This document shows, in pieces, positions 22,440 through 23,981 of a stretch of DNA of 64,000 bases (positions within the stretch are counted from its first letter, which is position 1; each line of letters opens with the position of its first letter). The stretch covers positions 62,001 to 126,000 of the forward strand of contig CAXHJY010001169.1 in assembly GCA_964016885.1 (NCBI GenBank). The letters run 5' to 3'. The position numbers and the translations under genes are program-made. This stretch comes from Eledone cirrhosa. Lineage: Eukaryota. Under the pieces are notes generated by a model. That model did no database searches, was not told the origin of the DNA, and saw only the letters and a program-made list of their open reading frames with translations.

Positions 22440-23495
22440 CTTTCTCACCCAGAGACCAACCCCAAAACAACACAGAACTAACCCGCAACACAAACATCAT
22501 ACAATTCAGAAGAAACCTACACAGACAACATGAAATCCCAACAAAACCTTTCCACATTAACAACTACAATAGGTACCACCCCCAACACTTCAAAAACAAC
22601 CAAGCAACATCAACACTATGCATCCCAGAAGGAATCCACCCAATCCACATGAATCATAACAGAACTCTTACACAATAACAACTACAACAGACACCACTCC
22701 CATCACCACATTAACTCTCACGAAAAAACAAACTACAGACCCATACAAAACAGACAAGCAGACTACAATTACAACCAAAACAACATTCCTTTTTTAGGAA
22801 AAAGACTGAAATACCAGGACACCCGATGACTTCCACTCACGAGAAGCCGAAGATAATTAACCTTTCAAAGATATCACTAATTAACACACAAATTAACATA
22901 TTAAGTAAAGGGCTGAAATTTACTCCCACACCACAAAAATCTAACTTCCCCGAAATGAAAGATGGCATCATGGAATTCTGCCGAACACTCAGACTAATAG
23001 AATACTTCTCCAATGACACCAACACTGAAGACGAACCAATAGTCAGAAACAAAAGTGATTTCTGCCCACAGAAAGGGATGAACACAGCACTGGACACCTC
23101 CTGCGAACACATCATCAACTTTCCCTATGAAAAAATTGCAAATAAACACACGAAATGGAACCTCTCCAAACACGTATGGAAAGAATTATTCACACTGTGA
23201 AATAACACTGAAATAACCATCAAAGAAGCCGATAAAGGGAGCACTGTGGTCATTATGGACACTGACTACTATAGAGACCTAACACTCAAAATCTTAGACG
23301 ACAACAAGTACTACGAAAAAAACAGTAAACTACAAACAAACTAAAACAATGGGCAACCTCCTAGCATTACTACAAAAATACCGCAGTAGCCGAACCACAA
23401 AATAATTTGAATACATAAGCCATTTCAAATATAATACAAGTGCTTTCTACGGCTTACCGAAGATACATAAATGTAAATTCATGAGCAATTCATGT
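22440..23495 (+). mobile_element. Penelope-like element (PLE), N-terminal RT region, truncated and degenerate
   Basis: IINLS...LSKGLKFTPTP...FCRTLRLIEYF...IKEADKGSTVVIMD...FYGLPKIHK; stops and frameshifts present. Confidence 0.9.
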
Positions 23496-23499
23496 GACA

Positions 23500-23974
23500 C
23501 GTTATTTGTTTTTATCGTCTCCGTTGAACCGGTACGTACTCACACTCTATGCAAATTAGTCTGCCCACTACTAATTTTCATAGAAAAAGCATATAACGAT
23601 ATGTGCTTTTACGATTCTCCAGAAAGGCCGGTAGATAGGTAAATATTGCTGATGAGTTGTAACAACAACGAAACTAGTTCAATATTCCTTGTCTGGCTTT
23701 CTGGAGAATAGAGGAAAGGTGTTTCCTCAAAAACCAGTATGACTCTAAAAACCGGTTTGTCTGTGTGTTTACATACAGATTAGCTGGATACTCACAGTAA
23801 AGTAACCAGTGAAAGACTTGGTACATCTACATATGTATACGTGTGTGTATTCATATGCATACTAGTATTTCAGTATGCATATGTAGATGTACATTTTTAA
23901 CTTAATTGTTTAAGCGTCAGTCATACAAAAGTGAGTTACAAACGAAACGAAATTTAATTTCGTTTCGTTATTTG

Positions 23975-23981
<7 letters not shown>
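23500..23981 (+). mobile_element. diverged single monomer of the HHR repeat family (466 bp + 16-nt terminal redundancy)
   Basis: Collinear blocks shared with the array unit (TATGCAAATTAG, TAATTTTCATA, GGTAAA, CTGATGA, GAAACTAGT, AAAGGTG, AGTGAG, AATTTCGTTT); CGTTATTTGTTTTTAT at 23500 and 23966. Confidence 0.8.
23642..23686 (+). ncRNA. type I hammerhead ribozyme; predicted cleavage after 23679 (GUU)
   Basis: AAUAUUG-CUGAUGA-GUUGU AACA ACAAC-GAAA-CUAG-UU|CAAUAUU; stems I and II fully paired with a sequence different from the array copies. Confidence 0.9.

Follow-up and report, generated by a model that had tools for sequence, protein, structure and literature searches.

The locus analysed here raises the question of how a retrozyme unit came to lie directly behind the broken reading frame of a Penelope-like element (PLE), and whether both were copied together in one reverse transcription event. 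For the metazoan non-LTR retrozymes, PLEs have been proposed as mobilisers (Cervera and de la Pena 2020, PMC7229834; Li, Clavereau and Pollet 2026, 10.64898/2026.07.22.740005), with no demonstration of this role found in the parts of the literature compared. The original prediction for the window, by which the whole stretch of 64,000 nucleotides from Eledone cirrhosa is meant (positions 62,001 to 126,000 of contig CAXHJY010001169.1), was that a PLE reverse transcriptase (RT) copied about one turn of a circular retrozyme RNA and then switched template to PLE mRNA. The comparison of ages, ends and flanks suggests that at this place the two parts likely do not stem from a single copying event. 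Most probably, the retrozyme, likely written in trans by a PLE-type enzyme, landed in a (TA)n tract beside an old resident PLE, and a deletion fused the two. The features on which this reading is built are collected in Table 1.

Table 1. Features of the PLE–retrozyme locus and of the array used for comparison, in window coordinates.
Feature	Position	Strand	Remark
Two-armed array of sister retrozyme family A, six hammerheads	14056..16911		
(TA)n tract, outer end of the inverted arm of the old PLE	20290..20407		putative left half of the target
Inverted arm of old PLE P0 (3' UTR/pLTR sequence) with two later insertions inside	20395..22445	-	
SINE-like repeat nested in the P0 inverted arm	20615..20810	+	repeat family D16
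Internally deleted mariner-like DNA transposon with TIRs and TA flanks, nested in the inverted arm	21110..22008	+	
Decayed N-terminal remnant of the P0 ORF (PLE of Neptune type)	22450..23500	+	DKG and FYGLPKIHK motifs
PLE–retrozyme junction	23500..23500	+	one shared base, C (1-nt microhomology); no second occurrence in the assembly
Retrozyme family B, single unit of 466 bp	23500..23965	+	nearest copies 99.8% identical; elsewhere in tandem with a period of 466-468
Type I hammerhead motif, GUU triplet	23642..23686	+	predicted cleavage after 23679
Short (S) terminus of family B, unused as end in the window copy	23907..23912	+	unit positions 408-413
69-nt tail between the S and long (L) termini	23913..23981	+	last 16 nt = start of next unit
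(TA)n target tract, then unique non-PLE sequence	23982..24011		

The identification of the segment as a retrozyme holds, as it has a type I hammerhead, tandem units and thousands of copies. Contrary to the earlier claim, it is no diverged relative of the array in the same window; it belongs, as a near-identical copy, to a separate young family, B. Within the 40 best-scored of 554 candidates, a search with the segment at 23500-23981, a one-armed copy of 482 bp with only the L arm, gave 153 matches (some of these loci being parts of one insertion), mostly at 99-100% identity and with a tandem period of 466; between the copy and its closest relatives a single position in 482 differs. The 48-nt family-B hammerhead has 4,810 exact matches in the genome, which together with 2,164 L termini characterises a dispersed and recently mobile family; the unit has a GC content of 35% and no ORF of 100 aa. 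By these features the segment falls into a young non-LTR retrozyme family of its own, with a predicted self-cutting RNA motif. For comparison, the hammerhead of the sister family A has 10,122 exact matches; the family-A units in the array (14056-16911) contain internal (TA)n, and the right arm of the array ends at a non-canonical site.

With respect to the hammerhead, the stems AAUAUUG/CAAUAUU and GUUGU/ACAAC have another sequence than those of the array and yet stay paired, as predicted. The predicted agreement with the array is found in the conserved core, the AACA loop and ACUAGU, but not in the cleavage triplet, which is GUU in the family-B unit and GUA in the array, nor at the base of stem II, where family A has a U.U position as in the axolotl Amex2 motif (PMC7229834). 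Rfam HH9 matches at 23631-23702 with an E value of 3e-6, yet with 38.6 bits the match falls short of the gathering score of 52 bits. The covariation that had been taken as a sign of selection on the fold is present in ten hand-picked variants, in which 6 of 13 pairs are changed on both sides and the score is 0.43 versus 0.17 after shuffling (0 of 500 shuffles as high), its weight being limited by the few independent events behind ten rows that represent two or three related families. The circular fold of the unit is predicted to be 67% paired. As the window copy crosses the predicted cleavage site at unit position 180, its template may fairly be described as a circular RNA, a multimer left uncut or two monomers joined together, which would all leave the same sequence; the one turn of a circular RNA in the original prediction is thereby one of several templates that fit equally, and its phase is not special.

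The ends of the copy are explained by the insertion pattern of the whole family. The L terminus (unit position 16) followed by (TA)n has 2,164 exact matches, with 0 for the reversed control, and the window copy ends at precisely this site, the (TA)n ending having been correctly noted before. The S terminus, whose count of 732 forward and 1,388 reverse matches includes overlapping reverse matches and is of qualitative use only, lies 69-74 nt from L, and the two are distributed one per opposed arm, each in (TA)n; in the window copy the intervening tail contains a 13-bp hairpin (23941-23969). Two opposed arms with one terminus each were read by eye in 19 of 27 insertions of a first position-ordered sample. 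In a second such sample, made up of 80 of the 84 listed places not in the first set, an inverted S terminus stood at a TA tract in 57 of 80 L-ended insertions (51 called at the far end), 7 of the 80 arrays being longer than the fetched stretch.

Against this background the terminal repeat of 16 nt loses its significance. The 16-mer CGTTATTTGTTTTTAT is exact at 23500 and 23966 and occurs nowhere else in the window; a host target site duplication was rejected, in agreement with the original prediction, since the 16-mer is unit sequence and absent from the PLE at that place. As the 3' end is a fixed family terminus, the redundancy is, on alignment to the unit, merely the start of a second unit and one point in a continuum of 5' starts, nine one-armed copies beginning at unit positions 43, 68, 141, 170, 191, 206, 271, 398 and 452. 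An 'exactly one turn' signature was likewise discarded in view of these scattered starts, the chance of the phase being 16/466 per copy. Of the start points, whose circular permutation had been proposed as a check, those at the 5' side are scattered; the 3' ends are fixed, and fixed ends had been named beforehand as an outcome that would speak against the original prediction.

Family B fits the metazoan non-LTR retrozymes, cleavage and circles being predicted. In common with those described in the parts of the source compared (PMC7229834) it has tandem units that are non-coding and contain a single type I hammerhead apiece, a GC content below 50%, thousands of copies and no LTR features, and it coexists with PLEs; the unit is slightly above the 150-450 bp given there and within the 51-972 bp of the more recent survey (10.64898/2026.07.22.740005). 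For metazoan retrozymes, the parts of the literature compared make no mention of two fixed termini, of opposed arms or of (TA)n targeting. These features resemble the anatomy of EN+ PLEs, for which a tail, an inverted arm and a bias for (TA)n have been reported (Craig et al. 2021, PMC8557442) and two internal RT start sites were demonstrated in vitro (Frangieh et al. 2024, PMC11167929). As far as these two sources were compared, shared features are partial tandems, an inverted 5'-truncated arm, a tail at one end, two internal RT start sites and AT-rich or (TA)n targets, while the family-B tail is longer (69-74 nt versus 30-40) and its template is non-coding and multi-unit, unlike that of EN+ PLEs.

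The same footprint is displayed by three young autonomous PLE families of this genome, which end at two fixed sites, S and L, in (TA)n, one per arm, 65 nt apart in P1, about 90 in P4 and 40 in P5. The mobilisation of retrozyme B by PLE-type enzymes, the part of the original prediction that survives on evidence other than the fusion, is supported by this sharing of two fixed ends, opposed arms and (TA)n with three young PLE families. P4 (L238-L256, L277-L296), with at least 40 copies at 99-100% identity, is very young and high-copy, with intact frames of 821 aa, a 90-nt tail, (TA)n targets and Hydra-clade motifs (RW-T, DKT, a CxCX5C linker, CxxC); long open frames of other families have 938, 844 and 1,096 aa. 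The assignment of P4 to the Hydra clade and of the window fragment, P0, P1 and P5 to the Neptune clade is by motifs only. The unit has no similarity to the pLTR or 3' end of 20 P0, 20 GIY-YIG and 20 P4 loci, a part of the PLE families, so that homology names no partner among the loci examined, in contrast to the 24 of 57 Xenopus families with homology to a PLE pLTR in the parts of the survey compared (10.64898/2026.07.22.740005).

Additional observations on PLEs concern ribozyme-like motifs and a further insertion. P1 (L213, L214, L218, L221, L222, L224) carries a hammerhead-like motif whose core reads UUGAAAA in place of the canonical CUGANGA and whose stem III is palindromic; it is conserved in 11 of 11 places seen, and P5 has a similar motif; in P4, a canonical hammerhead was not found by regular expression search. 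In the window at 60763-63394, an inverted repeat of 707 nt (98%) surrounds a GIY-YIG-like fragment (62201-62623, minus strand; 42% to P4), probably another two-armed insertion of Hydra type.

The PLE partner at the junction, P0, has a different history. The motif FYGLPKIHK, after which the frame had been said to break off, is present, as is ...ADKG..., but homology to other copies extends seven codons beyond it, up to 23500; the fragment, with two stops and one frameshift, begins at 22450 and is cut before the RT core. It shares 49% identity (E 3e-54) with an intact PLE protein of the same genome, and Pfam gave no match for two tested pieces of the frame. P0 and P1 have DKG, a C-terminal GIY-YIG and a CX4CxxC linker in common. 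The other P0 copies, at 83-93% identity among the 40 best-scored of 513 candidates, run 1.6 kb past the junction point, covering RT and GIY-YIG, before they end in a UTR without similarity to the retrozyme unit; among those examined, none is intact.

The flank upstream of the P0 frame is P0 UTR in inverted orientation, the usual second arm of a PLE, to judge from its colinearity with the P0 3' UTR in 5 of 5 copies compared, across both inserts. The flanks of the first insert, which we take to be a SINE, are contiguous in L080 and L088, and those of the second, presumably a mariner, in L082 and L088. As shown by these alignments, an old two-armed P0 was resident here and later took two nested insertions. 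The mariner-like copy matches its nearest relatives at 93-94% over the full length and at 96-97% in pieces, and since it is nested in the P0 arm whereas the retrozyme is near-identical to its relatives, the order of events is read as PLE, then mariner, then retrozyme. Other features of the window are a 43-bp minisatellite of about 19 copies (24530-25314), a 5S rRNA copy and, behind it, a sequence of about 90 nt present as an inverted pair (34236-34850; pair at 34340-34430 and 34745-34830) and clusters of broken long frames at 31458-33248 and 50217-53702, which we presume to resemble a helicase-bearing element and a LINE.

At the junction the two parts differ in age. The P0 fragment has 42 differences in 690 positions to the nearest PLE copy, versus 1 in 482 for the retrozyme (Fisher p 3e-9), and 33 in 720 to the family majority; if only substitutions seen in no other copy are counted, the gap is weak (9/720 versus 1/482, p 0.057). 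A near-identical donor for the P0 part was not found among the 40 best-scored of 513 candidates, in an assembly that may lack a donor. In view of the age gap, this missing donor and the fixed 3' ends of the copies, the proposed switch to PLE mRNA is not supported at this locus. An amplified chimera is out, as the junction has no second copy in the assembly with up to 2 mismatches allowed. Past the (TA)n the right flank is non-PLE, and no allelic copy of it is present in the assembly, where only a repeat part matched.

Most probably, then, the fusion arose by insertion and loss. A PLE endonuclease would have nicked the (TA)n at the right end of the resident PLE, whereupon RT would have started at the internal L site and copied 482 nt of a circular or multimeric RNA, passing over its ribozyme site and ending in a copy with the fixed L terminus of the family in (TA)n. 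The enzyme would likely have come from one of the young intact PLE families and not from P0. About 2.6 kb of the right arm of the PLE, and any second retrozyme arm, would have been lost during the insertion or later, the loss leaving the 1-nt microhomology at the junction.

Compared with this sequence of insertion and deletion, a template switch, with a PLE RT going once round the retrozyme RNA and then moving on to a P0 transcript so that both were inserted together, is improbable at the window locus. The same orientation, the clean junction, the crossing of the cleavage site and a layout identical to that of the age-matched fusion L257 are what it would produce, and a GC-rich foreign piece of about 72 nt between the two retrozyme arms of L368 (590-669), possibly captured cellular RNA (no Rfam match, no match among the loci compared), hints that the RT switches templates. 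It is opposed by the decay of P0, which has no young copy, by a left flank that is in its entirety an old PLE arm with nested insertions, by the failure to find a donor among the best-scored candidates and by the 23 nt directly preceding the junction, which depart from the family majority at four positions. Slight credence is given to an assembly artefact by collapse of palindromes and (TA)n, as contig C1196 is unplaced and four public runs gave 0 junction-spanning contigs and likewise no empty allele, their contigs being too fragmented for either; the junction is nevertheless outside simple repeat, and similar fusions occur on chromosome-scale contigs (L257, L258, L311, L332). It is very unlikely that an old PLE-retrozyme chimera had its retrozyme part later overwritten by a young copy through conversion or homology-driven re-insertion. 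Such a course would reconcile the layout with the age gap, and older subfamilies at 84-94% do exist (14 matches in a search that skipped common words and gives no copy number), but the unit is the commonest young variant right to the junction, from which other subfamilies diverge within the first 45 nt. That the unit is the normal pLTR of P0, conceivable in view of the hammerhead-carrying, retrozyme-like pLTRs of Xenopus PLEs in the parts of the survey compared (10.64898/2026.07.22.740005), is refuted, as the original prediction required, by the uniqueness of the junction and by 20 extended P0 copies, in which the ORF continues past the junction point to end in an unrelated UTR, the unit never follows the ORF end and, in 2 of 20, a separate retrozyme copy lies at least 1.1 kb past the junction point.

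How often family B abuts PLE sequence elsewhere was another point raised by the original prediction. Direct fusions are present in 4 of 153 loci, and an unfused PLE match lies within 400 bp in 15 of 153, mostly across a TA tract, so that neighbourhoods from which a fusion could arise are common. Far ends outside TA are fused to a PLE ORF in 3 of about 8-10 cases judged by eye (p 0.02-0.03 versus a flank background of 7.3%). As this background, obtained with more PLE families counted, is higher than the 0.5-1.4% with fewer, the enrichment is weakened, and fusions to PLE ORF are only weakly enriched above it. Two of the fusions involve an older PLE as in the window, namely L258 (C1:2.98 Mb), joined to an old EN fragment at 82%, and L311 (C1:41.49 Mb), joined to an older P5 ORF (PLE 97% versus retrozyme 99%). 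Insertion at PLE-flanking (TA)n with a presumed loss of intervening DNA would explain these two and the window. On the other hand, L257 and L332 join family B to young PLEs, so that the family may include mixed-template insertions.

L257 (3935-7270; G000:C1:282,612,900-282,616,270) combines young P4 and retrozyme B in one (TA)n-bounded two-armed insertion. The left arm consists of P4 and stops at the S terminus of P4. In the right arm, P4 ORF passes into 1.2 units of family B, which run to the L terminus, and the join shows 4 nt of microhomology and a duplication of 5 nt. Both parts are young (P4 99.0-99.7%, family B 99.8% to relatives), each arm has one terminus and both outer ends lie in (TA)n, which makes L257 a better candidate for a template switch than the window locus. 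We consider it possible, though rather doubtful, that PLE RTs here make mixed insertions in a single event, from retrozyme RNA as well as from their own mRNA, and that L257 is a direct fossil of this. A young P4 piece lies unfused beside family B at L011, so that sequential insertion and deletion may account for L257 as well. At L332 (G000:C1:69.44 Mb) family B (98.3%) is fused to a young P5 terminus (99.6%), but the two long ends and the fold-back found there are equally compatible with a later deletion. No PLE-retrozyme chimera was described in the literature searched by titles and abstract starts.

Cumulatively, the window locus gives no demonstration of PLE mobilisation and serves rather as a warning that a common preference for (TA)n targets, followed by deletion, can bring about PLE-retrozyme fusions, which must therefore be age-matched before they are counted. 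If the mixed-insertion reading is true, L257 names an intact, active PLE family as the enzyme of the retrozyme and provides a defined pair for an in vitro test, to which L332 would add a second partner of Neptune type. The family-wide footprint and L257 make the question of what mobilises animal retrozymes testable with a named candidate enzyme and RNA.
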